A stretch of DNA of 64,000 bases from NCBI GenBank assembly GCA_026395295.1, contig JAPLYZ010000012.1, forward strand, positions 1,299 through 65,298, written 5' to 3'. The notes beneath the pieces were generated by a model. It was not told where the DNA came from. It searched no databases and was given only the letters and a program-made list of their open reading frames with translations. This stretch comes from Candidatus Staskawiczbacteria bacterium (lineage in GTDB: Bacteria > Patescibacteriota > Minisyncoccia > Minisyncoccales > Staskawiczbacteraceae). This document shows, one piece after another, positions 14,564 to 48,025 of this stretch. Made by a program: the position numbers and the translations under genes. The stretch's first letter is position 1, and each line of letters begins with the position of its first letter.

Positions 14564-14570
14564 ACGGGTG

Positions 14571-28220: not shown

Positions 28221-29939
28221 ATGAACGCCGAAACTAAAGTTTGCCAAAATTGCAAAAAGGACTTTGTAATAGAGCCCGAGGATTTTGATTTCTACGAAAA
28301 GATAAAGGTTCCCGCGCCAACTTTTTGTTTTCAATGCAGAACAGTACGACGCCTGTCTTTCAGAAACGAACTTTCCCTTTATAAAAGAAAATGTTCTGCT
28401 CCCGGACACAACGAAGAGATGATTTCTGCATTTTCTCCAGAAAAAAATATGGTTGTCTATGATAACAAATATTGGTGGAGCGACCAGTGGGACCCCATGG
28501 ATTTTGGCAGGGATTATGATTTTTCAAAAACATTTTTTGAGCAATGGCGAGATTTCCGCAACAAATTCCCTTTTCAAAGCGTTTCTAACTCGCATAACGT
28601 GAACAGCGACTATTGTAATGTAGCCGATTACAGCAAAGATTGCTACTTGGTATCTGGTGGTTTTAAGAATGAGAAAGTCCTTTATTCAAACAGAGCAGAG
28701 GGTGACAAAGATTCCGCAGACTTATATGTGGCCCATGACAGCGAGCTTTGCTACGATAATGTCCTTTGTTCCGATTCTTATCACGTGTTTTACAGCCTCC
28801 GTTGCACCAATTGTACAGATTCTTATTTTCTTTATGATTGCCGAAACTGCTCTAATTGTTTTGGTTGCAGCAATCTAAGAAGTAAAAATTGTTATATCTT
28901 TAATCAGCCTTATACAAAAGAAGAATACTCCCAAAAAATAAAAGAGTTTAATCTTTCCAGCTTCTCGTCAGTCCAAAATTTGAAAAAGGAATTTGAAAAA
29001 ATTTACAAAAAGTCTGTTCACAGATATGCCAATATCTTAAAATCCGACAGGTCAACGGGAGATAATTTAGAAAATACTAAAAATTGCAAGTCGTGTTTTG
29101 ATATAAAAGAGGCTGAAGAAGGAAAATATAACCACTGGGGCGGTTTGCAAACAAAAGATTTCTACGATAGTGGACCGGGCACTGGTGTTGGGGCTGAATT
29201 ACTGTACGAAACTTTTGATACCGGAGTTCAGTGCTCAAGAAATTTTTTCACCAGCGTTGTTTACAGCTCGCGAGACGTCTATTATTCTTTCAATTGCTAT
29301 GATTGCTCTGATCTTTTTGGTTGTATTGGTCTGCGCAGTAAGCAATCTTGTATTTTTAACAAACAATATTCTAAAGAAGAATACAAAGCTCTGAAAGATA
29401 AGATAATTGAACATATGAACAGCATGCCATATGTGGATAAAAAAGGTCTGGTATATAAATTCGGAGAATTTTTTCCCGCAGAACTCTCGCCTTTTGCTTA
29501 CAACGAAACCGTGGCGCAGGATTATTTCCCGCTAAACAGAGACCAGGCTATTAAAGAAGGATATAATTGGCGTGATGCTGAAAATAAGAATTACAAAATT
29601 ACCATAAATGCAGAAGATCTGCCAGACGACATAAAGGATGTTGACGACTCCATCTCAAACGAGATAATTGGATGCGCGCACCATGGTAAATGCAATGATG
29701 TCTGTTCAGCGGCTTTCAGAATAATTTCACAGGAATTTCAGTTTTACAAGAAGTTGGGCATCCCTTTGCCCAGATATTGTTTTGGTTGCCGGCATGCTGC
29801 GCGATTACGTTTGCGCAATCCTATGAAATTATGGGACCGCCAGTGCGCAAAATGCGGGAGGGAAATTAAAACATCGTATGCTCCTGACCGCCCGGAAATT
29901 GTTTACTGCGAAAGCTGCTATAATCAAGAAGTGGCGTAA
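28221..29939 (+). CDS. cysteine-rich repeat protein, paralog B
   Basis: 572 aa with the same architecture as 26381-28042. The first ~33 codons are nearly identical at the DNA level; the rest has diverged. Confidence 0.75.
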   Translation: MNAETKVCQNCKKDFVIEPEDFDFYEKIKVPAPTFCFQCRTVRRLSFRNELSLYKRKCSAPGHNEEMISAFSPEKNMVVYDNKYWWSDQWDPMDFGRDYDFSKTFFEQWRDFRNKFPFQSVSNSHNVNSDYCNVADYSKDCYLVSGGFKNEKVLYSNRAEGDKDSADLYVAHDSELCYDNVLCSDSYHVFYSLRCTNCTDSYFLYDCRNCSNCFGCSNLRSKNCYIFNQPYTKEEYSQKIKEFNLSSFSSVQNLKKEFEKIYKKSVHRYANILKSDRSTGDNLENTKNCKSCFDIKEAEEGKYNHWGGLQTKDFYDSGPGTGVGAELLYETFDTGVQCSRNFFTSVVYSSRDVYYSFNCYDCSDLFGCIGLRSKQSCIFNKQYSKEEYKALKDKIIEHMNSMPYVDKKGLVYKFGEFFPAELSPFAYNETVAQDYFPLNRDQAIKEGYNWRDAENKNYKITINAEDLPDDIKDVDDSISNEIIGCAHHGKCNDVCSAAFRIISQEFQFYKKLGIPLPRYCFGCRHAARLRLRNPMKLWDRQCAKCGREIKTSYAPDRPEIVYCESCYNQEVA

Positions 29940-31425: not shown

Positions 31426-31953
31426 ATGAAAATATCTGTTACTGATAAATTTCTCTGGGATGTTTATAGTTTTCTTGAGAGTGCAAATAGCGCGGCAAAT
31501 TTTATGTTTAAGGCGCCGACGATGAGGAATTGGCTGCCTGGAGAAAAAAATCCGGTTTTTGAAAAATATAGGAAGGAGAAAGGTAGGAGAGAATTTAGTA
31601 ACCTTATTTATTATTTGAAAAGGAAAGGATATATAAAAGCAAAAAATTTAGAGGGTAAACAGGGTATGTTGTTAACAAAGCAAGGGATAGACAAAGCATT
31701 CACCACCAGCTTTAAACTGGGGAAGGGGAAAAAGAGAAAAGACGGTAAGTGGGCAATGCTGATTTTTGATATGCCAAAAAGACGAAGAAAAGAGAGGGAC
31801 TTATTAAGAAGCGTTCTATGCAATTTGGGATATAAGATGTTTCAACAAAGCGTTTGGATGACTCCATATGATGTTTCTGACAAAACAGAAAAGTTACTTC
31901 AAAGATATTCATTGGATAAATATGTTAGGATATTTATTATAGAAGAATTATAA
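31426..31953 (+). CDS. putative wHTH regulator (PaaX-like, with a Cas2-like ferredoxin-fold segment)
   Basis: LIYYLKRKGYIKAKNLEGKQGMLLTKQG (wHTH-like), then WAMLIFDMPKRRRKERDLLRSVLCNLGYKMFQQSVWMTP. Assignment from memory, low certainty. Confidence 0.4.
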   Translation: MKISVTDKFLWDVYSFLESANSAANFMFKAPTMRNWLPGEKNPVFEKYRKEKGRREFSNLIYYLKRKGYIKAKNLEGKQGMLLTKQGIDKAFTTSFKLGKGKKRKDGKWAMLIFDMPKRRRKERDLLRSVLCNLGYKMFQQSVWMTPYDVSDKTEKLLQRYSLDKYVRIFIIEEL

Positions 31954-34224: not shown

Positions 34225-36372
34225 ATGCAAAAAGAACCTCTTGTTCTCAGAATTTGTGATTTTGTCACAAAATATAGCGTTTACGCGTTAGTTTTTTTAA
34301 CACCGCTTTTTTTCCTGCCCCAAACTGCGGAGGTTTTAGATTTTAATAAGCAAGCGTTGCTGGTTTTGCTTGTTTTTATTTCTGTTTTCGCTTTGCTGTT
34401 AAAAACTCTAATCTCGGGAAAATTTGAAATAAATAAAAGTTTTTTCCACGTAATTGCCGGAGTTTTGTTTTTAGCATATCTTCTATCAACAATTTTCTCT
34501 GTATACAGATATGGAAGTTTTTGGGGTCAGCCTCAGCAAATTTCCGAGAGCGCGCTTACAGTAATTTGCCTGTTATTGTTCTATTTTGTGTTCAGCAACT
34601 TTTTTTCCAAAAAAGATATTTTAATATCGGCGATAGTCCTTTCTTTATCGGCTGTAATAGCGGAATTAGTAGGTGTCTTTCAGATTTTTGGCTTGTTTAT
34701 TCTGCCATTTGATTTTGCTAAGTCCTCGGCTTTTAACACGCTGGGTTCTTTCGGCGGTTTGGGGTTCTTTGTCGCCATACTTTTTCCGCTGGCAATGATG
34801 CTTTTGATTATTGTCAAAAAATGGTGGAGGTTTTTCTTTGCCCTGCAAATAGTTCTTTCCGCCTTGCTTTTAATTTTAATAAACTATCCAATAATTTGGT
34901 GGGTTGCTATAATTGGTTCGGCCCTAATTTTGCTGCTGGGTATAATAAAAAACGATCTCTTCGACGGAAGATGGCAGGCGCTTCCGATGTTTTTTTTGGT
35001 GGTGTCTTTGTTTTTTGTGATTTTCAACCCGCAAATAAATTGGCTTCCTCATCCGCAATCAGAAATTCTTCTTTCACAAAAATCTGGTTTAGACATAGCA
35101 ACCCGGGCGCTTAAAGCCAATCCCATTTTGGGCTCGGGCCCCGGGACTTTCGCCTACGACTTCTCAAAATTCAAAAATCCAGACTTTAGTAAGACTTCTT
35201 TATGGAATACGGCTTTTGGCAAATCTTCTTCAAAAGTTTTGAATAGCGCGGCAACAACCGGAGCGCTTGGATTTTTGGCTCTGCTGGCGTTTATGATTTT
35301 CCCAATTTTTTACGGAATTAAATTTTTCATAAGACGGGAAGAAAATAACAACGGTCCCGAGGCTGAAAAATCGCCGAGCCAAATTTATTCTATTTTGTTG
35401 ATTGGTTTGTCGGTTGCGCTGATTCAACAAATTATTGCTTGCTTTGTCTACAATTCAAACATTGTTTTGGATTTTGTTTTCTTTTTTATAATTGCCGCGT
35501 CAATGGGGCTTGTTTCCGAGCGCAAGCAAAAATATGTTTTAAAACAGTCTTCGGCAATTACACTGGGGGTTACTTTTGTTTTTACATTATTTTTTATCTT
35601 TGGAATTGGGCTTTTATTTTTAGGCGGGCAAAGATATGTTGCTGAAGCAAGTTATTACAAGGGGCTGGTTGCTTATCAGGCAGGTAAAAATGCCGACGGT
35701 TTGAAAAAATTAGAAACCGCTGTAAGTTTAAACTCAAAATCGGACTTATATTTTAGGCAGTTGTCGCAGGCGTATCTTATAAACTTACAGCAAGAATTGC
35801 AAAATGCAGGGTCTGCTTCAATCAGCGACCAGCAAAAAACAAAAATTCAAACTCTTGTGTCAAACTCCATTAATGCCGCTAAAATTGCAACAGACATAAA
35901 TCCAAACGACGTTAATAACTGGTCTTCGCGAGGATATGTTTACCAAAGTTTGTCTAATTTGCTAAGCGATGCCGAAACATGGGCAATAAGTTCTTACGAC
36001 TCGGCGTTAAAATTAGACCCAAGCAATCCTTATTTATTTTTCCAGGAGGGGAGCGTTTACCTGGCAGGCGTAAGCGCGCAAGGAATTTCGGCTGACCAAA
36101 AAAGTCAACTGCTGTTGAAGGCTCAAAAACAACTGGAAAAAGCTGTTGCGTTAACCCCAAGCTATTCCAATGCCCTGTATTCTCTGGGCATTGTTTACGA
36201 TTTGCTGGGGCAGAACGGCAAGGCCATAGATGCTTTTACAAAATTACAACAGTTAAATCCTGCAAACACAGACATTCCTAAAATTTTGGCTAATTTGAAA
36301 GCCGGCAAGTCAATTTTTCAAACCGCCACTCCTCCGGCGGAAACTCCCAGCGGCGCAGTCAATAAAAAGTAA
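34225..36372 (+). CDS. O-antigen ligase-like polytopic membrane protein with C-terminal TPR repeats
   Basis: More than 10 TM helices with a Wzy_C-like loop, then TPR-like repeats (YYKGLVAYQAGK..., ALKLDPSNPY..., AVALTPSYSNALYSLGIVY). Confidence 0.65.
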   Translation: MQKEPLVLRICDFVTKYSVYALVFLTPLFFLPQTAEVLDFNKQALLVLLVFISVFALLLKTLISGKFEINKSFFHVIAGVLFLAYLLSTIFSVYRYGSFWGQPQQISESALTVICLLLFYFVFSNFFSKKDILISAIVLSLSAVIAELVGVFQIFGLFILPFDFAKSSAFNTLGSFGGLGFFVAILFPLAMMLLIIVKKWWRFFFALQIVLSALLLILINYPIIWWVAIIGSALILLLGIIKNDLFDGRWQALPMFFLVVSLFFVIFNPQINWLPHPQSEILLSQKSGLDIATRALKANPILGSGPGTFAYDFSKFKNPDFSKTSLWNTAFGKSSSKVLNSAATTGALGFLALLAFMIFPIFYGIKFFIRREENNNGPEAEKSPSQIYSILLIGLSVALIQQIIACFVYNSNIVLDFVFFFIIAASMGLVSERKQKYVLKQSSAITLGVTFVFTLFFIFGIGLLFLGGQRYVAEASYYKGLVAYQAGKNADGLKKLETAVSLNSKSDLYFRQLSQAYLINLQQELQNAGSASISDQQKTKIQTLVSNSINAAKIATDINPNDVNNWSSRGYVYQSLSNLLSDAETWAISSYDSALKLDPSNPYLFFQEGSVYLAGVSAQGISADQKSQLLLKAQKQLEKAVALTPSYSNALYSLGIVYDLLGQNGKAIDAFTKLQQLNPANTDIPKILANLKAGKSIFQTATPPAETPSGAVNKK

Positions 36373-36553
36373 GCGAGCTACTTTATAATTCCCAATATCT
36401 AATATCCAATTACTAATAAAATGCCTAATTCTCAAATTCCAAAAAGCGTGGAGAGAAGCCAACGAACTACTCCAAAACGCACAATAACAAAGAAAAAGAT
36501 TTAGACATCATCTATATTCCTTTACAATCCTTTATATTCCTCTAACGTTACCC

Positions 36554-37393
36554 ATGGATACCAAAACTTTTTTACAGAACTTTGCTTTTGAAAATCCAAA
36601 TTGGCAAAACCTGCCTGACGACTGGCCAAATCCAAACACAACAAAATTGAGCTCTTCAGAAATCGGAAAACTACAAGCCGTTAAAACTTTATGGGAAAAT
36701 TTGAAACCGGAAAAAACAGAGCAAGTATCAAGGGTTTGGACAGACCCGGAAGGTTATAAATTTTTGGTCCAGTGGAGCAATGCAGTTTTGTTGAGATATT
36801 TGATAAGAAAAATTACCGATACTTTGCCAATTTTAAGTTATAGAGGAAATTACAGGAATATAAAGGACGCTAATAAATGTCCTCTAAATTCCTCTAATCC
36901 TCCTTTATCGCCATCCTCCAGTCGTCCGTCTGAACATCGGCGCAAGGCTCAGCTAGACGACGCGGCAAGAAGCGTTGTCAGAAATATTGAAGAAGGATAC
37001 AAAAGAGCAACCACAAAACAATATCTTGATTTTTTAAGCTATACCCAGGCTAGCTTGGAAGAAGTGAAGGGCGATGTTGTGGAATTGGCGCAAGATGGTT
37101 TTTTGAAATCGCGAGCAGGTTCTTTATTGTGCGACATAGAGATTGATTTGGCAGATTTTCACAACAGTCTAAAACAAATCAAAGGATTTTACAGGAATTT
37201 AGAGGATGTTTATCCTGTTTTAGCAAAAATTAAAGGCAGTGATTTAACGGTTGAGCAATTTATAGAGTTGATAAATAAAACAGATTTCCTTTTAAGAAAG
37301 TTAGTTGAGTCGTTAGAGAAAAAACAAGGTCAAAATTTAAAATTTTATCAGGTTGAACGGGCCAGGATTCAAGACGCAATCAAAAAACGATAA
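36554..37393 (+). CDS. four-helix-bundle (23S rRNA IVS-type) protein with N-terminal extension
   Basis: The core RKAQLDDAARSVVRNIEEGYKR.TTKQYLDFLSYTQASLEEV matches the TIGR02436-type pattern (RRA..S...NIaEG....s..e...fl..a.gSl.E). tccttta-word repeats lie inside and around the gene. Confidence 0.6.
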   Translation: MDTKTFLQNFAFENPNWQNLPDDWPNPNTTKLSSSEIGKLQAVKTLWENLKPEKTEQVSRVWTDPEGYKFLVQWSNAVLLRYLIRKITDTLPILSYRGNYRNIKDANKCPLNSSNPPLSPSSSRPSEHRRKAQLDDAARSVVRNIEEGYKRATTKQYLDFLSYTQASLEEVKGDVVELAQDGFLKSRAGSLLCDIEIDLADFHNSLKQIKGFYRNLEDVYPVLAKIKGSDLTVEQFIELINKTDFLLRKLVESLEKKQGQNLKFYQVERARIQDAIKKR

Positions 37394-37480
37394 AGGAACG
37401 TAAAGGATTTTAAAGGACAATAAAGGAAGAAAATTTAAATTCCTTTAACTTCCCTCTAGATTCCTTTATAATCCTTTAGC
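37394..37480. repeat. AT-rich 'taaagga / tccttta' word hairpin
   Basis: taaaggaacgtaaaggattttaaaggacaataaaggaag...ttcctttaacttccctctagattcctttataatccttta. Four words per arm in inverted orientation. Confidence 0.7.
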
Positions 37481-37526
37481 CAAACCAAGTAGATGAGTTT
37501 TTTGGACGTTGATACGCCCAAGAAAC

Positions 37527-37568
37527 TTATCCACAGTGTTGACACGTATTTTTCATGCTATAATAAAT
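37527..37568 (+). promoter_or_regulatory. candidate promoter of the surface locus with TTATCCACA motif
   Basis: TTATCCACA at 37527-37535 and TTGACA at 37539-37544. The -10 is either TATAAT at 37559 (14-nt spacer, short) or ATAAAT at 37563 (18-nt spacer). Confidence 0.35.
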
Positions 37569-37576
37569 AAAAATAT

Positions 37577-37759
37577 ATGTTTGTGATAAAATGCGATTTT
37601 TGCAAAAAGGAAGTTAAAGGAGATACTGTAATTGCAGGCAGGGGAGTTTTCGCGGCGCTAAAAGTAGAATTATGCGAGGAGTGTGGCGAGCCAATTTTGA
37701 AATTTTTACAGAGGAATAAAATTATTGATAAGAACAATAAAGAAATAAAAAAATTATAA
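37577..37759 (+). CDS. small zinc-ribbon protein
   Basis: 60 aa with CDFC...x26...CEEC. Confidence 0.5.
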   Translation: MFVIKCDFCKKEVKGDTVIAGRGVFAALKVELCEECGEPILKFLQRNKIIDKNNKEIKKL

Positions 37760-37764
37760 AAAGC

Positions 37765-37977
37765 ATGGAAAACAATAAAAAAATTACAATTGAAGAACTA
37801 GCGAAAATGATAAAAGCAGGTTTTGACGGCGTTGATAAAAAACTTGAGCAAGTTGCAACAAAAGATCAGTTTGATAATTTAGAGAGGAGGATGATTGTGG
37901 TTGAAGGAAAATTAACCTCAATCGATGAAAGATTAGAGAGAGTCGAAACAGTCTTAACTGACGCGCACGTTTTGTAA
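37765..37977 (+). CDS. small coiled-coil protein
   Basis: 70 aa with heptad-like LERRMIVVEGKLTSIDERLERVETVL. Confidence 0.45.
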   Translation: MENNKKITIEELAKMIKAGFDGVDKKLEQVATKDQFDNLERRMIVVEGKLTSIDERLERVETVLTDAHVL

Positions 37978-38018
37978 AAATTAGAATAATTAGGTTAATT
38001 AGAAAAATTTAATTTATA

Positions 38019-39860
38019 ATGGCAGAGAGAATCCCAATTAGAATTATTAAACAAAACCCAAAACGCAGAAGGCCTGCGATAAGTTTGTTTGCATCAATTT
38101 TGTCAGGCTTGGTTGTTGGCGGATTGTTTTCTGCCACCCTTTACGCTTTTGCCACTTATGGAGTTGACGCGCCATACCCGCTTGGAAACACTTTGAATCC
38201 TGACTGTGTGCCAGGAACAGCCAACTGCACCGTGGTTTCGCCGGCATATTTTTCTTATGGCTCAAATAATTTCTCGGGAGCAGGAGATTTCACCACCACA
38301 GGAACAGTCATGGCTGGAGGATTGACGATAACTGGCGCTGTTTCTCTACCGAACAACTCCATCACCAACGCGATGACTAACGCCACGAACGCCAACACCG
38401 CTTCCGCCATTGTCGCCCGAGACGCTTCCGGCAATTTCTCGGCTGGAACAATCACCGCCTCGCTCACCGGACATTCTTCGTTAGATTTGCCGCTTACCGG
38501 TGGAACTCTCACCGGCGTCTTGACCGCCACAAGTCCGGTTTTCACCACTCCAGCTCTTGGCACTCCGTCTGCTCTGGTCTTAACCAACGCTACGGGTCTT
38601 CCAGCTGCAAGTATTTTGGCCGGCAGTTTTGGCACTGGAGCTTATGTGATGGATACGTCGCTTTTAGTGCCTGCAATAAATGGCAGTTCATCGGCGAATG
38701 GTGTCTTGACTTTGCAAGGAACAACAAATGCGACGCGAACCACGAGTTATCTTAACTTGCAACCAAACGGAGGCAATGTAGGGATTGGGACGGCGACGCC
38801 AAGTGAGAAATTGCATATAGATTCTAATACCGCAAATACTGCTGTGGTAGAATATATACGTAATCTAAGCAATACTTCGGGAAGTAATGCTGCTTTATGG
38901 CTTCAAACGGCTGGTACGAGTGGAGGCGACCCGCGTATTGTTTATACGGTTGTAAATGCGACAGATTGGTGGTCGGGAGTGAATAATGCAAGCAGTCAGA
39001 AATATCAGATTTCTAACGGAAATTGGGCAACCGCTTCAAATGTGAAGTTGTCAATTTCGACAGACGGCTCTGTCGGCATTGGAATCACCGCGCCGACTTC
39101 TCTCTTGCACACAGTAAGTTCAGCCGCAAAGACCACTGCTTACACAGGCATACTTCACAGCGTGACAGATACTTCAAGCACCGCTTCCATCAACAAGATA
39201 GGCATGGACATTGAAAGCACAGGAACATGGAATGGAACTTCCGCCGTAAACACCGGACTGGTAGTCAACGCCACAGGTGGCACAACCAACTACGCGGCGA
39301 CATTCAGCGGAGGGAATGTGGGGATTGGGACGGCGACGCCAGGACAGAAACTTGATGTACAAGGAGCAATCGCGACTACACCAACATTGAGAGTTATGGG
39401 GAACGACACTGCTTCTTATGGATTATTCCAAGCTGGAACTAGTGTTGGTGATGCTGGGAGCGTAGGGGCAAGAATGGTTTTAGGTGATGTTGGAACAGGG
39501 GGAAAACGATGGGATATTGGAAGCGGTGAACGAGTCGCAGGAGCATTAAGTTTTTACAACGCTACTGATAATAGGGATGTGGTCACAATGCTAAGCAATG
39601 GCGCCGTCGGTATCGGCACCACAGCCCCTCTCAAGACTCTCGATGTCGCAGGAGGCGGAAGGTTCACAGGAAAAACTTCTTCCACTTTGACAGGCACAGC
39701 CGACCCTACAGCCAGCGTAACGCTTGTGGGCTCGGGAACATTGTTTACAACAGAATTAGTAGTTGGAGACAGAATCACTATCAACGCTGAAACAAGAACT
39801 GTTACCGCTATCGCTTCCGACACAAGCTTAACCGTGGATACCGCTTTCACGTCGGTATGA
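38019..39860 (+). CDS. membrane-anchored tail-fibre-like surface protein, part 1
   Basis: N-terminal basic stretch plus TM (RRRPAISLFASILSGLVVGGLFSATLYAF), a fibre-type segment SAIVARDASGNFSAGTITASLTG, and four G(N/S/A)VGIG(T/I)xxP modules. About 53% GC in a sampled line. Confidence 0.7.
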   Translation: MAERIPIRIIKQNPKRRRPAISLFASILSGLVVGGLFSATLYAFATYGVDAPYPLGNTLNPDCVPGTANCTVVSPAYFSYGSNNFSGAGDFTTTGTVMAGGLTITGAVSLPNNSITNAMTNATNANTASAIVARDASGNFSAGTITASLTGHSSLDLPLTGGTLTGVLTATSPVFTTPALGTPSALVLTNATGLPAASILAGSFGTGAYVMDTSLLVPAINGSSSANGVLTLQGTTNATRTTSYLNLQPNGGNVGIGTATPSEKLHIDSNTANTAVVEYIRNLSNTSGSNAALWLQTAGTSGGDPRIVYTVVNATDWWSGVNNASSQKYQISNGNWATASNVKLSISTDGSVGIGITAPTSLLHTVSSAAKTTAYTGILHSVTDTSSTASINKIGMDIESTGTWNGTSAVNTGLVVNATGGTTNYAATFSGGNVGIGTATPGQKLDVQGAIATTPTLRVMGNDTASYGLFQAGTSVGDAGSVGARMVLGDVGTGGKRWDIGSGERVAGALSFYNATDNRDVVTMLSNGAVGIGTTAPLKTLDVAGGGRFTGKTSSTLTGTADPTASVTLVGSGTLFTTELVVGDRITINAETRTVTAIASDTSLTVDTAFTSV

Positions 39861-41821
39861 CTGTGAATGATTTGGGGAATGTGGGGATTGGGACAGCGGC
39901 GCCGACAGGAAAATTCAACATTGTTTCTGATGACGCTATAGATTCTGATCCTATAAGTTATATTGATAGGTATGCGGGAGCTAATGTGGCAGCTATTTCG
40001 TCAATGGTCTACCGTAAAGCGAGAGGAACGAAGTCGACACCAACAGCTTTACAATCAGGTGATAGTATTGGAGGTCTAGCCTTTAGAGGTTATGGGGCGA
40101 CTGGTTTTCCAAGTGCTTCCACTGCCTTAATTAGCAGTGTAGCTGAACAGACTTTTACAGACTCAGCGATGGGCACAGCGTTAGCTTTCAAAACCACTCC
40201 TCTAAATTCAATCACATCGACAGAGGTAATGAGAATAAATAACGCTGGCTTTGTCGGCATCGGGACAGCTTCGCCGACAAATATCCTTTCTCTCGGCGGG
40301 CAGTCGGCTCAGACTTTCTGGATGGAACGGGAAACAACCGCCGCCACTGCCGGAAACAATCTGACCATCACAGCTGGCGGAGCGAAATCTGGCGGGACTG
40401 ATCTAGCGGGAGGTAATCTGATTTTAACTTCGGGCGTGGCGACTGGAGCGGGAACTTCGCAAATCACTTTCAACACATATCCCGCCGGTTCCACAGGAAC
40501 AGCCGACGCGACAGTCACAACAGCTTTGCAGATCATGGGTGATGGCACGGTGAAGGCAAGCAATTCAAAATGGTTCGCTTCGGTGGACAATGCCGGCACA
40601 GGCGTTATAAATATGTTCCGCGATAACGCTTCCGACCAGATAGAGCTGGGAGCTACGCTCGTAAGCGGGCCAATCGAAGCTGTCGCGGACGCCGGAAATG
40701 TTTCCATATTTGATGAACCATTAACCTTGGCTACAGGGAATGGAACTGCTGTATCAGCATCTCTGCGTTTGGCAGAAACAAACATCTTATCTATTTCTGG
40801 CATCTCTGATGGCAATGGAGGAATCACAAGCCCTTATGTCGGCATCGGCACGACTACTCCAGGAGCAATGTTGGATATTGGTTTGGCAGGAACAACTTTG
40901 GGCACAATGCGACTTGAAGGAAACACTTCCGGCTATGTTCAACTGCAATCAGCCGCCGCGGCCGGAAGCTGGACAATGACTTTGCCTGCGGCTGTCGGAG
41001 GCGGAGCCGGATATTTACTTACTGACGTTGCAGGCAATGGCATAACTTCTTGGACTGCTCCCGCATCTTCGCGCGACTTAAAAGATATTGCGGGAACCGT
41101 AACCGACCCGACCGAAGCCTTGACTCAAATTTTAGGAACGCCAATTTATCGCTTCCACTACAAACCGGGCATGGGCACAGGCGACACAGCAACAGAATAC
41201 GTGGGCGTAATGGCCGACGAAGCTCCATGGGCAATGCACTACAATGGCGCAATAATCAACCCGGTCAACACCTTGGGCTATATGGTTTTGGGAGTGCAAG
41301 CTTTGTCAAAGGAAATCGCCGACTTGAAAACCCAAATTAACTCCGGCGCAGGAACAGTTGGAGATGGCACAATTAACGGGTTAGACCTTAGCAGTCCGTT
41401 TGTTAAAGAAATTAAGAATATCTTAGCTTTGTTGGGAATAAAGACCAACAAAGGCTCGGTGGAAAAAATACAAATGGTTGACCAGGCAACCGGAGATATT
41501 TACTGCACGTGGATTGCCAATGGCGACTGGCAGAAACAAAAAGGAGCCTGTGACGAAATTTCAAATTCCCAATTACCAATTTCCAATGAAAGCGGGGGGA
41601 CGTCCGACATCCCCCCAACTGAGAGCGCCCCAACGCCTGACGTTGTAGAAACTCCGCCAATTACAGTAATCGAAACACCAGCTGAAACAACACCAGCTCC
41701 GGAAATAGTTCCGCCATCGCCCGAAATTACCGTTCCTCCTGCCGATGTTGTTGCGCCTCCACCTGCTGAAACACCAGTGCCTGCGTCCGACGCAACGCCT
41801 CCTGGCGCAGATTCCCAGTAG
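39857..41821 (+). CDS. tail-fibre-like surface protein, part 2, with S74-type intramolecular chaperone domain and Pro-rich tail
   Basis: ATGA overlap with part 1. Three more GxVGIGTxxP modules, then SSRDLKDI...IYRFHYK...YVGVMADEAP...LSKEIADLKTQI (Peptidase_S74 pattern), then ~160 aa including a PT/PE/PV-rich tail. Confidence 0.7.
   Translation: MTVNDLGNVGIGTAAPTGKFNIVSDDAIDSDPISYIDRYAGANVAAISSMVYRKARGTKSTPTALQSGDSIGGLAFRGYGATGFPSASTALISSVAEQTFTDSAMGTALAFKTTPLNSITSTEVMRINNAGFVGIGTASPTNILSLGGQSAQTFWMERETTAATAGNNLTITAGGAKSGGTDLAGGNLILTSGVATGAGTSQITFNTYPAGSTGTADATVTTALQIMGDGTVKASNSKWFASVDNAGTGVINMFRDNASDQIELGATLVSGPIEAVADAGNVSIFDEPLTLATGNGTAVSASLRLAETNILSISGISDGNGGITSPYVGIGTTTPGAMLDIGLAGTTLGTMRLEGNTSGYVQLQSAAAAGSWTMTLPAAVGGGAGYLLTDVAGNGITSWTAPASSRDLKDIAGTVTDPTEALTQILGTPIYRFHYKPGMGTGDTATEYVGVMADEAPWAMHYNGAIINPVNTLGYMVLGVQALSKEIADLKTQINSGAGTVGDGTINGLDLSSPFVKEIKNILALLGIKTNKGSVEKIQMVDQATGDIYCTWIANGDWQKQKGACDEISNSQLPISNESGGTSDIPPTESAPTPDVVETPPITVIETPAETTPAPEIVPPSPEITVPPADVVAPPPAETPVPASDATPPGADSQ
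41066..41340 (+). other. Peptidase_S74-like intramolecular chaperone / autoproteolysis domain (internal)
   Basis: The Ser-x-x-x-Lys start SSRDLK (codons 404-409 of the ORF) through LKTQI. Motif order as in endosialidase and tail-spike C-terminal chaperone domains. Confidence 0.6.
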
Positions 41822-41831
41822 TAGGCATTAT

Positions 41832-42476
41832 ATGAAAAACAAAAATATGAACAAACGTTTTGCTTTTATAGATGTTCAAAATACAGAAACAACCACTCGT
41901 CGTATGCTTGGTTTTTCAGTTGACTGGATGAAGCTTTTTCAATTTTTAAAAAATGATTGGAAATGTGAAAAAGTTTTTTTCTATTCAGGCATAGATGCAG
42001 GGGATTCGGAAATGGAAAAAGAATTCAAAATTCTCTCGGACGAGGGATGCATCGTCAGGTCAAAACTTGTTTTTGCGTATAAAAACAAGAATAAAACCGT
42101 GGATGTCAAATGTCACAAGTGTGGAAGCGAGTTTGAGGAGGTTGTGGATATGGGATACAACCGAAAATCAAATTGTGATGTCGACCTGACGGTTGACGCT
42201 ATGGAGTGCGCCGGACTAAGCACAGAATTTTATTTATTCACTGGCGATGGTGATTTCGAGTATCTAATTAAAAAAGTCGTTGAGAAGGGAACATTTGTTC
42301 ATATTGTATCGAGCGCAAAAAAGGCGCAAAGCGGTCCCAGATATTCTGTGTCGAGGTTCTCCACAAAATTAAGAAAATTAATTAAAGAAAAAGGAAAGTC
42401 AATAAATTTTTTAAACATTGACAATCTAAAGTTCCGTATAAAAAAGGAAAAGGCCGCGAAGCGCGACCTTTTCTAA
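41832..42476 (+). CDS. NYN domain (LabA/limkain-type) putative ribonuclease with inserted zinc ribbon
   Basis: FAFIDVQN, CDVDLTVDAM and LFTGDGDFEYLIKK acidic motifs, with a CHKCG insertion. ATG 41832 is preferred over the tracked 41745, which reads through the fibre gene's 3' end. Confidence 0.65.
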   Translation: MKNKNMNKRFAFIDVQNTETTTRRMLGFSVDWMKLFQFLKNDWKCEKVFFYSGIDAGDSEMEKEFKILSDEGCIVRSKLVFAYKNKNKTVDVKCHKCGSEFEEVVDMGYNRKSNCDVDLTVDAMECAGLSTEFYLFTGDGDFEYLIKKVVEKGTFVHIVSSAKKAQSGPRYSVSRFSTKLRKLIKEKGKSINFLNIDNLKFRIKKEKAAKRDLF

Positions 42477-42543
42477 GGATATTGTAATGTTATCAAATAT
42501 AAAACGAATGTCAAGTCTAATTATTCACAGCTCTGTTTCTCAA

Positions 42544-44418
42544 ATGAAAAAAATTTTATTTATCACAATTCTAACTTTGCTTTTAGCCCCTTCTGTCTTT
42601 TGCCATGCCGCGCAGATAGGGAACTTGGAAAAGGGTTTGGTGGGGCATTGGGCATTGGACAATATCACCAAGGCGAGAGACCTGTCGCCGTACGGCAATA
42701 ACGGCACAGGCGCGGGTGGCATAACCATAGGCGGAGCCACCGACCAGCACGGGCAAGCCAATAAGGCGACGACATTCACAGCGGCGAGTAGTCAGTATGT
42801 GGATGTTGGAGCTGGTTCAAAGTTTAATTTTGAAAGAACTAATCCATTTAGTATCGGTTTTTGGGCGAAAACAAGCACAGCTGCTATCCAGCGTCCTGTA
42901 AGCAAATTTGATACTTCGGGAAATTATTTCAGAGGATATGGAATCCAACTTGCTAGCACAATTACACAATTTCAGATTGTTAACACTTGGAGTACCAATG
43001 TTCTTGATGTCTATACATCGGATTCTATTACGAATGGGAATTGGCATTATGTTGCGGTAACTTATGACGGTAGTTCAACTGCGGCAGGAGCAAAAATATA
43101 TATTGACGGAACTTCTCGTTCATTGGCCACAGCGCATGATACTTTATCTGCAACTATACAAAATAGTATTTCATTACAAATGGGAGGTTCTTCTCCTACC
43201 AACAGGCAATACTTCAATGGCTCCCTCTCCGACGTCCGCATCTACAACCGCGCTTTGTCATCGGCGGAAGTTACCCAGCTCTATAATTCCTACCGTCCAC
43301 AAGTCCAAGTATCAAAAAATCTTGTGACTAATGGGAGTTTTACAAGTAGCACAACCGGCTGGACGGCGAGCAGTGCGAGTTTAGCGAGTGTGGCTGGTGG
43401 ACAATCAGGAAACGCTTTACAGATTACAAATACAACAGCTAATTCAGGATATGCTTATCAAACATTTTCAGGAGTAGCAGGGCAGATTTATCAAATAAGT
43501 TTTGGTGAGAAAAAGGGCACAGGAGCTTCTGGATGGATTTCTGTTGGAACTCTTCCAGGAGCTTATGATATTGTCGGGAATCAAGGATCTTTTGGTAATA
43601 CTAATTGGAATTTAAGAACTTTTACTTTTAAAGCGCCTACAACAAGAAGTTATTATCTTAATTTGTGGGTCAATACCATTGTTCAAAATGATACTTATCT
43701 CTTTGACGAAATCACCGTTACCGCTCCGAAAATCTCCACTGGCTCTCTACAGAAAGGTTTGGTCGGCTGGTGGAAATTGGACAATATCACAGGAGCGAGA
43801 GACAAGTCGGCGTATGGCAACAATGGCACAGGCGCAGGAGGCATAACCATAGGTGGAGCGACCGACCAGCACGGGCAAGCAGGCAAAGCGACGACATTTA
43901 ATGGGACGAGCCAGTATATTACTACCGCATCATCACCCGTTACTTCTACTAATTCCGCCTTTTCAGTATCAACTTGGGTAAATGCAACAACATTTTTGTC
44001 AATTAGTGGCGCTAATCGTAGGATATTGTCTGATGACATTAATGCAAATACGGCATTTCAATTAACTTTGAATACTGCTACTCTTGGTTATCAAAATGTA
44101 TTTACTTTTGTTGTTTATAAAAATGGAACGGAATATACAAAATTTACCACACCAGTTTGGAATACAAATACTTGGTATCATGTTGTCGCAGTATGGGACG
44201 GCAATGCTCATGTAATTTATGTCAATGGAGTTTCTCAAGCATTGACTTCTGATTCAGGTCTTTCAAAAGGAACCGCTGATAGTAAATTGCATATAGGAAG
44301 TCGCAATGGTAGTCCTAATACAGGATTTTTCTCCGGCTCCCTCGCCGACGTTCGCATCTACAACCGCGCTTTGTCAGCGGCGGAAGTCCTCTTGCTTTAT
44401 CAGGGGTATGGGAACTGA
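42544..44418 (+). CDS. secreted protein with two LamG (Laminin_G_3 / concanavalin-like lectin) domains flanking a CBM-like middle domain
   Basis: Signal peptide MKKILFITILTLLLAPSVFCHA. Two copies of GLVG.W.LDNIT.ARD.S.YGNNGTGAGGITIGGATDQHGQ...KATTF, each domain ending GSL(S/A)DVRIYNRALS(S/A)AEV. Confidence 0.75.
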   Translation: MKKILFITILTLLLAPSVFCHAAQIGNLEKGLVGHWALDNITKARDLSPYGNNGTGAGGITIGGATDQHGQANKATTFTAASSQYVDVGAGSKFNFERTNPFSIGFWAKTSTAAIQRPVSKFDTSGNYFRGYGIQLASTITQFQIVNTWSTNVLDVYTSDSITNGNWHYVAVTYDGSSTAAGAKIYIDGTSRSLATAHDTLSATIQNSISLQMGGSSPTNRQYFNGSLSDVRIYNRALSSAEVTQLYNSYRPQVQVSKNLVTNGSFTSSTTGWTASSASLASVAGGQSGNALQITNTTANSGYAYQTFSGVAGQIYQISFGEKKGTGASGWISVGTLPGAYDIVGNQGSFGNTNWNLRTFTFKAPTTRSYYLNLWVNTIVQNDTYLFDEITVTAPKISTGSLQKGLVGWWKLDNITGARDKSAYGNNGTGAGGITIGGATDQHGQAGKATTFNGTSQYITTASSPVTSTNSAFSVSTWVNATTFLSISGANRRILSDDINANTAFQLTLNTATLGYQNVFTFVVYKNGTEYTKFTTPVWNTNTWYHVVAVWDGNAHVIYVNGVSQALTSDSGLSKGTADSKLHIGSRNGSPNTGFFSGSLADVRIYNRALSAAEVLLLYQGYGN

Positions 44419-44467
44419 GTGCGCGTATGTTTGTATATTGTATTTAGTATATTGTATATTGGGTTAA

Positions 44468-44842
44468 ATGATTGAGGAAAATAAACAAAAAATTAAATCT
44501 TTTACAGATCTAAACGCGTGGAAAGAAGGACACTGTTTAGTTTTATTGATTTATAAGTTAATTAGCAGTTTTCCCCAAGAGGAAAAATTTGCTCTTGCAG
44601 ATCAAATGAGACGATGTGTGACTTCTGTAACTTCAAATATAGCAGAGGGATTTTCAAGACAGTCCAAAAAAGAGAAATTACAATTTTATTCGATATCAAA
44701 AGGGTCTCTAACCGAACTTCAAAATCAGTTAATAATTGCAAGAGATGTAAGATATATTTCAGAGGTAACTTTCGGAGAGACAATAGAAAAAATAACGGCA
44801 GTCGGTCGCCTTTTAACGGGACTTATTCAATACTTGCGTTAA
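44468..44842 (+). CDS. four-helix-bundle protein (23S rRNA intervening-sequence-type)
   Basis: SFTDLNAWKEGHCLVLLIYKL...FPQEEKFALADQMRRCVTSVTSNIAEGFSRQSKKEKLQFYSISKGSLTELQNQL, the canonical TIGR02436-type pattern. Confidence 0.8.
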   Translation: MIEENKQKIKSFTDLNAWKEGHCLVLLIYKLISSFPQEEKFALADQMRRCVTSVTSNIAEGFSRQSKKEKLQFYSISKGSLTELQNQLIIARDVRYISEVTFGETIEKITAVGRLLTGLIQYLR

Positions 44843-44905
44843 TCTATGCAAACATACAAAATACAACATACAAAATACGATATACGACATACGATATACA
44901 TAGTA

Positions 44906-47215
44906 ATGTTGTTTTTGCTAACAATGCCGGTTTTTGCGTTTGCTTCGGCAACACATGGAACAATTGATGACGTTTATAAATATGCATGGGCTGATAAAGC
45001 AGGCTGGATTAATTTTGGCGCAACGCACGGTGGAGTTGCTGTAACCGACGACGGTTTGTTGGGTTATGCATGGAGTGAAAATTTTGGATGGATAAATTTA
45101 AGCCTAGCAGGCAATGGCGTAAAAAATAATGGAGAGGGCGTTCTTTCAGGCTACGCCTGGGGAGACAACACCGGCTGGATAAATTTTTCCGGAGTTGTAA
45201 TTGATGATTTAGGAAAGTTTTCCGGAACAGCTTCGGGAGACATTACCGGAACTGTTAATTTTAATTCTGCCGAATGTCCAAATTGCCATGTTGCCACTGA
45301 CTGGAGGCCAAAACGGGTTAGGGGAGGAGCGTTACCTCCAAGCGTCTTATCTTTGCCCAGCACTCCAGCTTCCGGTTTTAGTATTTTAATAAACAACGGA
45401 CAAACATACACAAACAATCCTCTGGTAATGCTTCAGTTAAATGCCGGCGCTGACGTAAAAACAATGGTAATATCCGAGTCGCCAAATTTTGAAAACGCGG
45501 GGCAGGAAAATTATCAAGTGGCAAAAAATTACACTTTGAGCCAGGGAGACGGACAAAAAACTATTTACGTTAAATTTTACACGCAATATGGACAGCCGTC
45601 GCAGGTTGTGCAAAGCAGTATTATTTTAAAAACCCAGCCTCCGGAAATAAAAATAACCTCTGTTAAAAATTTATACAACGCCGACGAAGAGGTTGTTTTA
45701 AGCGGAATAACCAGCGCTAATGCCGAGGTTTCTTTCTATTTAGACCAAAGATATGGTTCTTTCCAGGCTGATGCCAGCGGAAGTTGGCTGATAACTTTGG
45801 GAAAAATGAGCTCGGGCGCGCACAAACTGGAAATGACTGCCCACGACCTTGCCGGAAACAACAGCCAGCCATTGGCAGTTGAATTTTCCGTGGGGGCAAC
45901 AACCGTGGCACAAACTCCATTGCCTTTGCTGGGTCGGGCGTTAGAACCAATTTTAAGGCAATTAGAAAATGGCGTGGCTCCTTTTGTGGCGCAGTTTTTT
46001 CCTCGTAAACAAGTTCCGGTTGCAGTAGTAACAGTTCCTAAAATTCCGCCAATGGCTTTAAGTTCAAAGTGGAATATTTTTCCAACAAAACCGGTTCAGT
46101 TGTTTGTTTTGGCTCCTTTGCCGGCGGAAATAAATGTTTTAGCGGAAAAATTTCCGAGCGTTCAGAAGACTTTCAGCGAAGTGGGAATTTCAAAAATTAC
46201 TGACATTGAAAAATTAAAAAATACAAAATTAAATTTACCGGGGCTAAGTCAGTTTATTGGATTGGAACCAACAGAAGTTGCGCCGGGAAAATTCGCTCCT
46301 TTGGCAGGTATTAAAATTGCCGATTTGCCCGCTGAGTTAAAACAGCAAATTCCTTCCGACATTGCTTTTACGCGAGTTGGCGGGGGCCTGATTGATGTCA
46401 GTACAGGGTTGTCTGTAAACAACCAGGGAAGTCCCAGCCAAACAATTGAGACCACCTCGGGAGCCTCGCTTGAGTTTATAGTGAAGGTGGACGCGCCGGC
46501 AAATAAGGTCACAGGATATATTGTTTTTACTTCAAGGAAGCCACAAACGTTGTCCAAAAATATTCCCATGAATTATTTGACGGCTTCTTTATCTTTTGCC
46601 CCGCCAAATTTTGCTAAGGCTCAAACTAAGCCGGTTGAGGTTGAAGAAAAAATGGTCTTATCTAAATTTGAATATCACAATACCGGCAACGGAGTTTACA
46701 CTGCCATGGTTCAGGCGCCAACAGTTTCAGGGCAGTACGAAATAATTACAGTGGTTGATTATAAAGACATAAAGGTGGGGTCAAAAGAATTAAGGCTGGT
46801 CACTGTTGTTGACCCGGAAGGCTATGTTTATGAAAAAAAAGGCGACAAAGAAACAAGAATTGGCGGAGCGGTAGCGTCGCTTTATTGGTTAAATCCAAGC
46901 ACTAAAAAATATGAACTTTGGCCTGCAAAAACTTTTCAGCAAGATAATCCGCAGGTTACCGATGTAAGCGGGACATATTCGTTTTTAGTGCCCGAGGGCT
47001 ACTATTATCTAAAGGTCGATGCCCCGGGCTATTTGAGTTATGAGGGAGAGCCAATTCAGGTAAAATCGGGAAGCGGCGTGCACGTTAATGTTGAATTGAA
47101 AACCAAGTATTGGTTTTTACAACTGATAGATTGGAAAACCATTCTGTTGATAGCAGTTGTGCTTTTACTATTATACAATTTTTATCAGGATAAAAGACGC
47201 CAGATAGCTCAATAA
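44906..47215 (+). CDS. large surface protein (GWINF repeats, Ig-like region, carboxypeptidase-regulatory-like domain, C-terminal TM anchor)
   Basis: Signal MLFLLTMPVFAFASA. Three YAW...GWIN(F/L) repeats and DPEGYVYE...TDVSGTYSFLVPEGYYYLKVDAPGY (CarboxypepD_reg-like). C-terminal TM WKTILLIAVVLLLLYNF. The tracked start 44846 lies in the atac-word repeat. Confidence 0.7.
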   Translation: MLFLLTMPVFAFASATHGTIDDVYKYAWADKAGWINFGATHGGVAVTDDGLLGYAWSENFGWINLSLAGNGVKNNGEGVLSGYAWGDNTGWINFSGVVIDDLGKFSGTASGDITGTVNFNSAECPNCHVATDWRPKRVRGGALPPSVLSLPSTPASGFSILINNGQTYTNNPLVMLQLNAGADVKTMVISESPNFENAGQENYQVAKNYTLSQGDGQKTIYVKFYTQYGQPSQVVQSSIILKTQPPEIKITSVKNLYNADEEVVLSGITSANAEVSFYLDQRYGSFQADASGSWLITLGKMSSGAHKLEMTAHDLAGNNSQPLAVEFSVGATTVAQTPLPLLGRALEPILRQLENGVAPFVAQFFPRKQVPVAVVTVPKIPPMALSSKWNIFPTKPVQLFVLAPLPAEINVLAEKFPSVQKTFSEVGISKITDIEKLKNTKLNLPGLSQFIGLEPTEVAPGKFAPLAGIKIADLPAELKQQIPSDIAFTRVGGGLIDVSTGLSVNNQGSPSQTIETTSGASLEFIVKVDAPANKVTGYIVFTSRKPQTLSKNIPMNYLTASLSFAPPNFAKAQTKPVEVEEKMVLSKFEYHNTGNGVYTAMVQAPTVSGQYEIITVVDYKDIKVGSKELRLVTVVDPEGYVYEKKGDKETRIGGAVASLYWLNPSTKKYELWPAKTFQQDNPQVTDVSGTYSFLVPEGYYYLKVDAPGYLSYEGEPIQVKSGSGVHVNVELKTKYWFLQLIDWKTILLIAVVLLLLYNFYQDKRRQIAQ

Positions 47216-47235
47216 TAACGTAACACAATAAAAAA

Positions 47236-47598
47236 ATGATAACCAAAAAGACAATTTTAACAGCAGTGATAGGAATTTTAGTCGCCGGTAATATATTGCT
47301 TGGCGTGGAGTTTTTTATTTCTCAGCAAGAATTAAAAATAGCTGAAAAAAGTGTTAGCGCCCAGCAAAATAGCGCCAAGGTTCTGCAATTTACAAACCTT
47401 TTTATAGAAAAAGTTTTGAAAGCGCAGGCAGAAATTTCTTTTGAGGATAGGTTGAAGTTAGAGAATTCCGTCAGAGATTTGAAAGATCCGGAAATTCTCG
47501 CCCAGTGGCAGAAATTTACCGCAAGCCAAACACAACAAGATGCTCAGCAGGAAGTTAAGAATTTGCTTGAACTTTTAGTCAAAAAAATTCCATTATAA
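47236..47598 (+). CDS. small membrane-anchored hypothetical protein
   Basis: N-terminal TM helix plus a helical ectodomain. No family recognised. Confidence 0.45.
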   Translation: MITKKTILTAVIGILVAGNILLGVEFFISQQELKIAEKSVSAQQNSAKVLQFTNLFIEKVLKAQAEISFEDRLKLENSVRDLKDPEILAQWQKFTASQTQQDAQQEVKNLLELLVKKIPL

Positions 47599-47660
47599 AA
47601 AAACTCCGCAGATTTTAGTTGCTTTTAGCTGGCAATTAAAACCCGCGGAGTTTTTTTAAT

Positions 47661-47731
47661 TCGGGGAAGGGAGAATCGAACTCCCACCGCACGCACCCCA
47701 TGCGTGAATCCTGCCGTTGGACCATTCCCCG
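47661..47731 (-). tRNA. tRNA-Pro (anticodon GGG)
   Basis: The reverse complement folds with acceptor cggggaa/ttccccg, anticodon stem cacgc/gcgtg with loop atGGGgt (G37), and T-arm gggag-ttcgatt-ctccc. Confidence 0.9.
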
Positions 47732-47744
47732 AGGCAGGGAAGAG

Positions 47745-47930: not shown

Positions 47931-48025
47931 GTTTAGAATAATTAGGTTAATTAGAATAATTTTTATAATGTATCTTACCACCTTCTTTTCTTTTTTGCAA
48001 TATGTGATAATATAGAGAAACAAAT

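Follow-up and report, generated by a model that had tools for sequence, protein, structure and literature searches.

A chromosomal, phage-tail-fibre-like candidate adhesin and its envelope-gene neighbours in Candidatus Staskawiczbacteria

A gene for a long fibre protein was analysed in a metagenome-assembled genome (MAG) of Candidatus Staskawiczbacteria (GCA_026395295.1). The 64,000-nt stretch examined, referred to below as the window, comprises positions 1,299-65,298 of contig JAPLYZ010000012.1 on the forward strand; the fibre gene lies at 38019-41821 of the window. A chromosomal adhesin which is related to phage tail fibres and resembles the mosaic adhesive trimer (MAT) fibres by which Bdellovibrio recognises prey is well supported by sequence comparison. 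The best explanation, which is held with moderate confidence, is a long phage-tail-fibre-like surface fibre of the MAT superfamily, kept near three envelope genes and used for binding a partner cell. In this tiny, probably host-dependent bacterium, the fibre is a testable candidate for the means of holding on to partner cells.

An earlier sequence-only reading had described a ~10-kb surface locus of nine genes around the fibre. All nine open reading frames (ORFs) start where that reading had placed them, and its calls of NYN, double LamG, four-helix-bundle and carboxypeptidase-regulatory-like domains agree with Pfam and NCBIfam, the last match lying just under the cut-off. Thus, the observation was confirmed, whereas the interpretation, one host-attachment apparatus domesticated from phage, was partly supported. 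Proteins of the locus are recorded in the source MAG as NT155_03285 and NT155_03305.

The fibre gene and its modules

The fibre gene and the modules recognised in its product are as follows.
38019..41821, + strand: fibre gene, 1,289 aa when intact, appearing as parts of 613 aa and 654 aa through a 67-nt gap.
38019..38420, + strand: N-terminal module; charged n-region, conserved hydrophobic helix (residues 19-45), then a domain of ~60-100 aa with two invariant Cys.
39977..40315, + strand: beta-helix fibre module, homologous to solved Bdellovibrio MAT modules and ending in one of seven VGIGTxxPxxxL motifs.
40832..41326, + strand: fibre tip and S74 domain, a putative intramolecular chaperone and self-cleaving protease with predicted catalytic Ser (41066-41068) and Lys (41081-41083) in the motif S-S-R-D-L-K.
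41444..41818, + strand: C-terminal module, MVDxATGxIYCTWIxNGxWxKxKGxC followed by a Pro/Thr-rich tail; also present in the homologue P0012, in other homologues and in the family consensus.

In the window, the fibre appears as two ORFs joined by an ATGA overlap (39857-39860), and these had been taken for two genes. They are one gene. The independent Logan assembly L067 (SRR20698638), whose flanks of 4,938 and 8,427 nt around the gap are 100% identical to those in the window, has 67 extra nt between window positions 39850 and 39851, and a single ORF of 1,289 aa results. The 22 inserted residues (DTAPASITKLSAIFLARLSNSA) match the equivalent segment of P0012. Furthermore, P0012 and the 1,425-aa fibre in L035 are single ORFs to which the C-terminal end of part 1 and the whole of part 2 align colinearly. 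The 67-bp gap is a deletion or an assembly variant, and an intact allele exists in the same population. No repeats were found flanking the 67 nt; therefore, a real deletion and an assembly fault are not distinguishable. Part 2 in the window has no export signal, hence the gene as it stands would be non-functional. Caution is needed when split fibre genes in MAGs are annotated, as variation between strains or assemblies can produce them. Assemblies made independently from other samples (L068, L069; ERR15302178, SRR20698651 and several more) are 99.95-100% identical to the window and all break exactly at window position 40289, inside the fibre gene, suggesting that there is strain-level heterogeneity or that the stalk contains repeats upstream of 40289. 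An exact-sequence look-up of the 654-aa part and of the homologue P0001 returned no record.

The basic n-region of the fibre reads KRRR and is followed by the hydrophobic stretch at residues 19-45 (translation and hydropathy scan). The N-module, i.e. the first ~110 residues, was found in 121 cluster representatives, nearly always at the N-terminus and mostly in proteins of 700-1,900 aa. Invariant positions are G19, F21, A29, P45, C47 and C54 (numbering of P0362, the first row of alignment A6). Because the sequence of the hydrophobic helix is conserved (invariant G, F and A), the helix is suggested to be retained rather than cleaved. Further domains among 46 N-module proteins were S74 (12 proteins), Big_4 (9), YadA_head (2) and, once each, LamG, F5/8 type C, Mtd_N and beta-propellers. 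Several paralogues per genome are possible, L006, L009 and L012 all being derived from one MAG. N-module proteins appear to follow the same "mosaic" logic as MAT. Two of them carry an intein splicing domain, which is unusual in surface-fibre genes; in the fibre homologue P0002 (805 aa) this domain (PF14890) is located at the N-terminus.

MAT fibres decorate the surface of Bdellovibrio bacteriovorus and bind prey glycans; examples are Bd3182 (S74 type), Bd2439, Bd1334 and Bd2133, and PDB codes were assigned to the MAT proteins as in Caulton et al. 2024 (PMC10769870). The intact fibre was compared with PDB sequences using phmmer and matched Bd2439 (8OL4/8ONF) with E = 8e-12 and Bd1334 (8ON4, 8OML) with E ~1.5e-6. 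Both alignments run through to the GNVGIGT loop. The seven VGIGTxxPxxxL motifs of the fibre resemble the published MAT capping-loop consensus V-G-G/N-small-x-x-P-x-x-x-L and are one residue longer. The fibre has about seven beta-helix modules ending in such loops, one of which is homologous in sequence to solved MAT modules. This homology makes a role as surface adhesin, which had been proposed before, plausible. The description as phage-tail-fibre-like was likewise borne out, since the fibre matches the tail fibre PHROG 9942 (E = 1e-13) and a related tip occurs in phage contigs (see below).

For the S74 domain, the full-length alignment A1 was too diverse for a genome scan and the tip/S74 alignment A2 was used. 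The tip/S74 region is 62-82% identical to nine close homologues; Ser, Arg406 and Lys are invariant in those 10 sequences. Ser404 and Lys409 of part 2 correspond to Ser1039 and Lys1044 of the intact fibre and are invariant, as Ser-x4-Lys, in 24 sequences. Ser404 aligns with position 1 of the PF13884 profile. The window fibre alone matches PF13884 weakly (E = 0.0024; 18.6-20.6 bits vs the Pfam cut-off of 22), but 15 of the 24 homologues, which are 33-63% identical to it over the region, match the profile with a best E of 1.5e-17. Together with the invariant Ser and Lys, the S74 assignment of the sequence-only reading can be regarded as solid at family level. The tip/S74 profile had no significant match among PDB sequences.

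The C-terminal module carries two conserved Cys, and module and tail would be released together with the S74 domain after the predicted cleavage. This module (there …MVDxATGxIWCTWVENGDWxKxxGxC and a Pro-rich tail) occurs in L070 as a separate anchored protein of 417 aa with its own hydrophobic N-terminus (6244-7497), encoded directly 3' of a non-S74 N-module fibre gene. S74 domain and C-terminal module might be released by cleavage as a separate product, for which the stand-alone L070 gene would be a parallel.

Chromosomal setting and neighbouring genes

The window is an ordinary chromosome segment of the candidate phyla radiation (CPR), with tRNA genes, TGT, MnmA and a copper ATPase upstream and the S12-S7-EF-G-EF-Tu-S10 cluster (str operon) in its downstream part. 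Genes for capsid, portal, terminase, tube, sheath, baseplate or integrase were found neither in the locus nor among the scanned window ORFs nor around the CPR homologues. Those homologues are flanked by tRNA synthetases, enolase, FtsH, MurJ and similar housekeeping genes, no phage genes being present. Nor was the same gene set found within a complete prophage in the CPR loci examined. An alignment-based scan of IMG/VR returned 78 viral contigs with a related module, the best of which are 50-60% identical over 110-160 residues. The six contigs inspected belong to genuine tailed phages and encode head, portal, terminase and tape-measure proteins. The GC content of the 14 best-matching contigs is 51-58%, with one exception at 39%. 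Neither the N-module nor any other gene of the locus was detected in the 78 contigs, a single-protein scan of viral contigs gave no match, and a tblastn search of INPHARED phages gave just one weak cyanophage match. The tip/S74 module is thus common to the locus and to phages, whereas the locus as such is cellular. The view that the locus is no prophage was thus corroborated, and the fibre is taken to be chromosomal by its syntenic setting among housekeeping genes. The direction of transfer implied by "domesticated from phage" is not decidable from these data.

Two features that had been noted for the locus are real but carry little information. The nine genes are co-directional; however, all real genes of the window except rpmB and tRNA-Pro lie on the + strand, so co-direction is uninformative. 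The GC content over the fibre genes (38-42 kb) is 48-51% vs ~38% elsewhere in the window. This excess is located mostly at codon position 2 (GC2 of 0.57/0.54 vs ~0.34 background), because the protein is rich in Gly, Ala, Thr and Pro (43% of residues). At codon position 3 the fibre reaches 0.44 (GC3; background ~0.36), the upper edge of the native range, and the LamG gene is native-like at 0.35. The excess is an amino-acid effect; therefore, composition does not speak for foreign DNA, and a high GC in fibre genes of this kind should not be annotated as a sign of separate origin.

Synteny was determined by tblastn and clustering over 72 related loci; the neighbourhood counts rest on few, partly related genomes. 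The gene orders were as follows, with minus-strand genes in the window, L070 and L071 marked (-).
Window: MBL - ADK - TPR - (279-aa PF05635, Zn60, cc70) - fibre - (NYN, LamG) - PF05635 - GWINF - anchor - tRNA-Pro(-) - rpmB(-) - M50 - S12 ...
L070: MBL - ADK - N-module protein - C-module protein - TPR - GWINF - anchor - rpmB(-) - M50 - S12
L071: MBL - ADK - IS200 transposase - 1,900-aa S74 fibre - PF05635 - GWINF - anchor - TPR - ... - rpmB(-) - M50 - S12
L072: N-module protein ... LamG ... GWINF - anchor - TPR
L026, L035: GWINF (C-terminal half) - anchor - small gene - fibre (- TPR in L035), between LeuRS and MurJ
L065, L066: GWINF - anchor, with N-module proteins 3-9 kb downstream

An N-module gene lies within 10 kb of the GWINF gene in all 8 other GWINF loci examined. 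A TPR gene is present in 5 of those 8 (6/9 counting the window). The order of the core genes is shuffled between loci, and the flanks differ in L026 and L035. Across several Paceibacteria-type CPR genomes, synteny supports a conserved core of fibre/N-module protein, GWINF protein, small anchored protein and TPR protein, with variable cargo between them. Hence, the proposed nine-gene apparatus did not hold: only the fibre, GWINF and small anchored genes recur together, plus the TPR gene, which lies outside the range of the sequence-only reading. The comparative genomics that had been suggested as a check linked fibre, GWINF and anchor across CPR loci but did not link NYN, LamG, Zn-ribbon or coiled-coil genes to them. 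The nine genes therefore are not one apparatus.

The three envelope genes of the core are listed here.
34225..36372, + strand: TPR membrane protein with ~11-12 predicted transmembrane (TM) segments (residues 13-470) and C-terminal TPR (Pfam TPR matches, hydropathy scan).
44906..47215, + strand: GWINF protein; GWINF-repeat, Ig-like and CarboxypepD_reg-like regions, signal peptide and C-terminal TM segment (residues 735-759).
47236..47598, + strand: small anchored protein (120 aa); N-terminal TM segment (residues 4-30) and helical ectodomain, an obligate downstream partner of the GWINF gene.

TPR homologues occur no more than 10 kb from a fibre gene in 16 loci, frequently as immediate neighbours, and adjoin the GWINF-anchor pair in L070, L071 and L072. 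A profile of the TM domain had no match among PDB sequences. The GWINF family is well conserved in CPR (>450 homologues, 45-61% identical over the full length). Pfam matches of the window protein were Big_6 and, just under the cut-off, CarboxypepD_reg (E = 2e-6). Its AlphaFold model (pLDDT 76) consists of a beta-rich GWINF-repeat region, Ig-like domains, a helical region, transthyretin-like sandwiches and a C-terminal TM helix; against PDB, it gave generic Ig-adhesin fold matches only. Homologues of the small anchored protein are encoded directly 3' of GWINF in L026, L035, L065, L066, L070, L071 and L072.

The remaining genes of the locus and the DNA elements around it are given below.
36554..37393, + strand: 279-aa protein with a partial PF05635 four-helix bundle (E = 2e-9); variable cargo.
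37577..37977, + strand: Zn-ribbon (60 aa; CxxC...CxxC in the translation) and coiled-coil (70 aa) pair, an independent two-gene unit.
37981..38010 and 47933-47962, + strand: 30-nt direct repeat, 29/30 identical, with none expected by chance.
41832..42476, + strand: NYN ribonuclease-like protein (PF01936, E = 1e-13), no TM segment, predicted cytoplasmic; variable cargo.
42544..44418, + strand: LamG protein, predicted secreted; signal peptide, two LamG domains (Laminin_G_3, E = 1e-46) and a central beta-sandwich; loosely tied to the core.
44468..44842, + strand: PF05635 / bAvd-like four-helix-bundle protein (PF05635, E = 6e-36; TIGR02436, E = 4e-34), immediately upstream of the GWINF gene.
47596..47658, no strand: hairpin with 27-nt arms, an inverted repeat 89% complementary and flanked by A/T runs.
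47660-47732, - strand: tRNA-Pro, convergent with the locus.

The NYN, LamG and 279-aa genes and the Zn-ribbon/coiled-coil pair are regarded as unrelated cargo of a variable stretch of the chromosome that adjoins the str operon. The NYN gene begins 10 nt after the fibre stop, as had been stated, and was never found beside fibre or GWINF genes of other species among the loci compared. PADLOC recognised no known defence system in the locus, with NYN as a weak generic match only. LamG homologues are widespread in CPR and other phyla, and a LamG gene is close to core genes only in L013 and L072. The ends of the two LamG domains are 80-86% identical in DNA (42631-42788/43753-43910; 43219-43284/44335-44400) and the middle has diverged, pointing to a recent duplication within the gene or to gene conversion; the mismatches show no adenine specificity. 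No homologue of the 279-aa gene was found in related loci, and it is absent from the syntenic L070 and L071. The Zn-ribbon/coiled-coil pair was absent beside other fibres in the loci compared. It recurs in L070 (18617-18917) between EF-G and EF-Tu, at 39-42% identity and far from the L070 fibre, and therefore is regarded as an independent unit. The cargo status of the PF05635 gene at 44468 is less clear, because the same position upstream of GWINF is kept in L071 (9533-9913). PF05635 genes, which are abundant in CPR, lie immediately 5' of secreted-protein genes, and in two LamG homologues (P0282, P0348) PF05635 is fused in frame at the N-terminus, ahead of a TM segment. Literature searches on the function of PF05635 returned no relevant paper.

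The hairpin at 47596-47658 is likely a bidirectional terminator, closing the + strand unit before the convergent tRNA-Pro. A general promoter/terminator scan gave a signal no higher than the shuffled expectation. The 30-nt direct repeat reads TTAGAATAATTAGGTTAATTAGAA[A/T]AATTT, and after a small indel both copies run on into TTATAATG. Copy 1 lies 8 nt upstream of the fibre ATG, copy 2 in the divergent rpmB/M50 intergenic region. Among 69 loci (L001-L069), the repeat occurs only in contigs of this strain. A duplicated promoter or operator is one possible reading of it, a scar of recombination another. Around the 279-aa gene (36508-37621), arrays of the heptamer TAAAGGA/TCCTTTA with 10-nt phasing occur inverted on the two sides of the gene and also inside it. 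The phased motif AAAGGA-N4-AAAGGA has 9 of its 10 window-wide matches within 36518-37621. In sequence, these arrays look like iterons or operators.

Several other genes of the setting were recorded. In L051, another CPR genome, a fibre-like gene with a conserved tip (no S74) and a gene for a GWINF-repeat protein lie between M50 and rpsL (7323-16564), i.e. beyond the same housekeeping landmark; this suggests that surface-protein genes are placed repeatedly in the neighbourhood. The window gene at 19094-20245 (383-aa secreted protein; GC 0.53, GC3 0.64) is the only one with a clearly foreign third-position composition; it had no Pfam, NCBIfam or PADLOC match. Adjacent paralogues of ~560 aa are encoded at 26381-28042 and 28221-29939, their sole match being a C-terminal treble-clef zinc-finger family. 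A 175-aa protein with a PaaX/Cas2-like domain is encoded at 31426-31953; no CRISPR array or cas genes were noticed.

Proposed function and competing explanations

The fibre would be exported by Sec, with its conserved N-terminal helix and module keeping it attached to the membrane. The S74 domain would drive trimerisation from the C-terminus and then cut itself off at Ser1039 (window 41066), exposing a binding tip which may recognise a surface glycan or protein on a partner cell. Judging by gene neighbourhood only, the GWINF, small anchored and TPR proteins would form a docking or assembly platform for N-module proteins. Membrane anchoring, trimerisation and host binding are what we infer for the fibre, and the analogy with MAT makes host attachment the best functional guess. 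A wider proposal is made tentatively and is itself rather doubtful: Paceibacteria-type CPR may possess a dedicated display system in which interchangeable, phage-fibre-derived mosaic adhesins with a common N-terminal helix and two-Cys module dock or are assembled on a platform of GWINF, small anchored and TPR proteins, the whole acting as the host-recognition apparatus of these uncultivated episymbionts, with a host range set by the exchange of tips with phages.

Several points weigh against the MAT-like partner-binding fibre. For one, the assembly analysed here has an interrupted fibre gene. The AlphaFold monomer of the tip/S74 region is poor (pLDDT 60.5), and Foldseek found nothing in PDB below E = 1. 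The membrane domain of the TPR protein belongs to no firm family; a weak Wzy_C match in 2 of 10-12 members (E = 0.002-0.004) makes a glycan ligase a possible lead. Conservation is far higher in the GWINF family than in the fibre, which would fit a general envelope role as well as a dedicated dock. Part of the core linkage could be inherited synteny near the str operon, and the neighbourhood statistics come from few, partly related genomes. Export, anchoring, trimerisation, cleavage, surface display and ligand are predicted only, and the episymbiotic lifestyle of Staskawiczbacteria is not established.

The most serious competitor, unlikely as it is, is a chance neighbourhood: the region from MBL/ADK to rpmB/M50/str would be a variable hotspot that collects unrelated secreted-protein genes and small selfish genes, and the fibre would have no functional tie to GWINF, anchor and TPR. 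The content between the conserved flanks does differ in every genome (IS200 transposase in L071; NYN, LamG and 279-aa genes only in the window), all window genes are co-directional anyway, GWINF is much more conserved than the fibres, and the N-module gene is 3-9 kb distant in L065 and L066. Nevertheless, chance fits poorly with an N-module gene within 10 kb in all 8 GWINF loci, with the GWINF-anchor-small gene-fibre(-TPR) cluster in the different LeuRS...MurJ context of L026 and L035, and with TPR genes directly adjoining fibre genes in several lineages. In another reading, the fibre is a real surface fibre but would serve self-aggregation or biofilm formation, particle attachment, a structural coat or a phage decoy instead of host attachment. 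The same tip in homologues from free-living phyla (such as Methylocella, Bryobacterales, Terriglobia) agrees with this, as does a lineage whose ligand and lifestyle are not established. We nonetheless consider such a function quite improbable, as the closest characterised relatives bind prey glycans (PMC10769870). Moreover, the full tip+S74 version was recovered mostly from CPR MAGs, plus two Omnitrophota MAGs (L021, L023), both phyla of ultra-small cells, and mosaic tips with several paralogues per genome fit the recognition of varied targets.

A decayed prophage, tailocin remnant or tRNA-linked island beside tRNA-Pro is largely refuted and very improbable. Its tail-fibre homology, the tRNA-Pro at the right edge, a direct repeat bracketing ~10 kb, the higher GC and a phage-like Avd match can all be cited for it. 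The prophage was rejected because phage structural, terminase and integrase genes are lacking here and beside the homologues, the chromosomal setting is syntenic and phage contigs share the S74/tip module only; the island was rejected because there is no integrase, GC3 is near background and L070 and L071 have the same housekeeping genes on the two sides of the core. In addition, the 30-nt repeat is not tRNA-derived and would enclose rpmB and the tRNA itself. Hardly credible, finally, is the remnant of a diversity-generating retroelement, with LamG or GWINF as the target of hypermutation, flagged by the Avd-like gene. The bAvd-like matches, the position of this gene between two secreted-protein genes and the internal DNA repeats of LamG prompted its consideration. 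It was rejected, as the window contains no reverse transcriptase (every ORF of ≥ 300 aa is accounted for) and no template/variable repeat pair, the LamG repeats being a domain duplication with mismatches that are not adenine-specific. The Avd model scored 40.9 bits, half of its cut-off of 80, whereas the generic TIGR02436 fits well.

To our knowledge, how ultra-small CPR/Patescibacteria find and hold their hosts is largely unknown. Full-text literature searches turned up no publication in which S74 or tail-fibre-like proteins are connected with Patescibacteria. Type IV pili of Saccharibacteria are the only such factors tested so far (PMC11623550). The locus provides a sequence-defined candidate adhesin family for the much larger Paceibacteria side of the radiation. 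The family is MAT-like with exchangeable tips, homologous to characterised prey-recognition fibres and has tip relatives in phages; its three conserved partner genes are named and open to docking tests.

Comparison with known systems

With YadA, SiiE and ice-binding adhesins, the proteins of the locus share the predicted long, repetitive and surface-exposed build; SiiE-/GhpA-type folds match the Ig-like domains of GWINF, and YadA_head occurs in 2 of 46 N-module proteins. The similarity is a generic one between beta-sandwiches, as neither an autotransporter beta-barrel nor a type 1 secretion signal is present here.

The S74 fibres and tailspikes of phages (K1F endosialidase, T5 L-shaped tail fibre pb1) are closer. 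The likeness comprises the S74 domain with its Ser/Lys dyad, a domain which in the phage proteins folds the trimer and then self-cleaves, the homology to PHROG 9942 and the tip/S74 module shared at 50-60% identity with tailed-phage contigs. In contrast to phages, there is no virion, a membrane/export module takes the place of the baseplate-attachment domain at the N-terminus, and the gene lies among housekeeping genes, syntenic between chromosomes.

MAT fibres of Bdellovibrio are the closest known system. The N-module (hydrophobic helix and two invariant Cys) is CPR-specific; the N-domain common to all MAT members is beta-rich and of ~130 aa, and MAT entries in PDB cover C-terminal parts only. 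The S74 motif is S-S-R-D-L-K here vs S-D-x-x-x-K in MAT, and a conserved C-terminal module with Pro-rich tail is added after S74. The envelope is presumably monoderm, the GWINF, anchor and TPR neighbours have no described MAT counterpart, and the CPR fibre is known from genes alone. Both kinds of fibre are chromosomal and not phage-borne, are ~1,000-1,300 aa long and begin with an export signal and a module that is conserved throughout the family. Both have beta-helix modules whose capping loops are of the GxVGIGT type (E = 8e-12 to Bd2439); some members end in a C-terminal S74 chaperone/protease, the others in different binding domains, and one genome can encode several paralogues. In each case, the organism that carries the fibres is a small cell thought to live on other bacteria. 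On the basis of these likenesses, the fibre was filed as a putative new member, from CPR, of the MAT / S74 tail-fibre-like adhesin kind.

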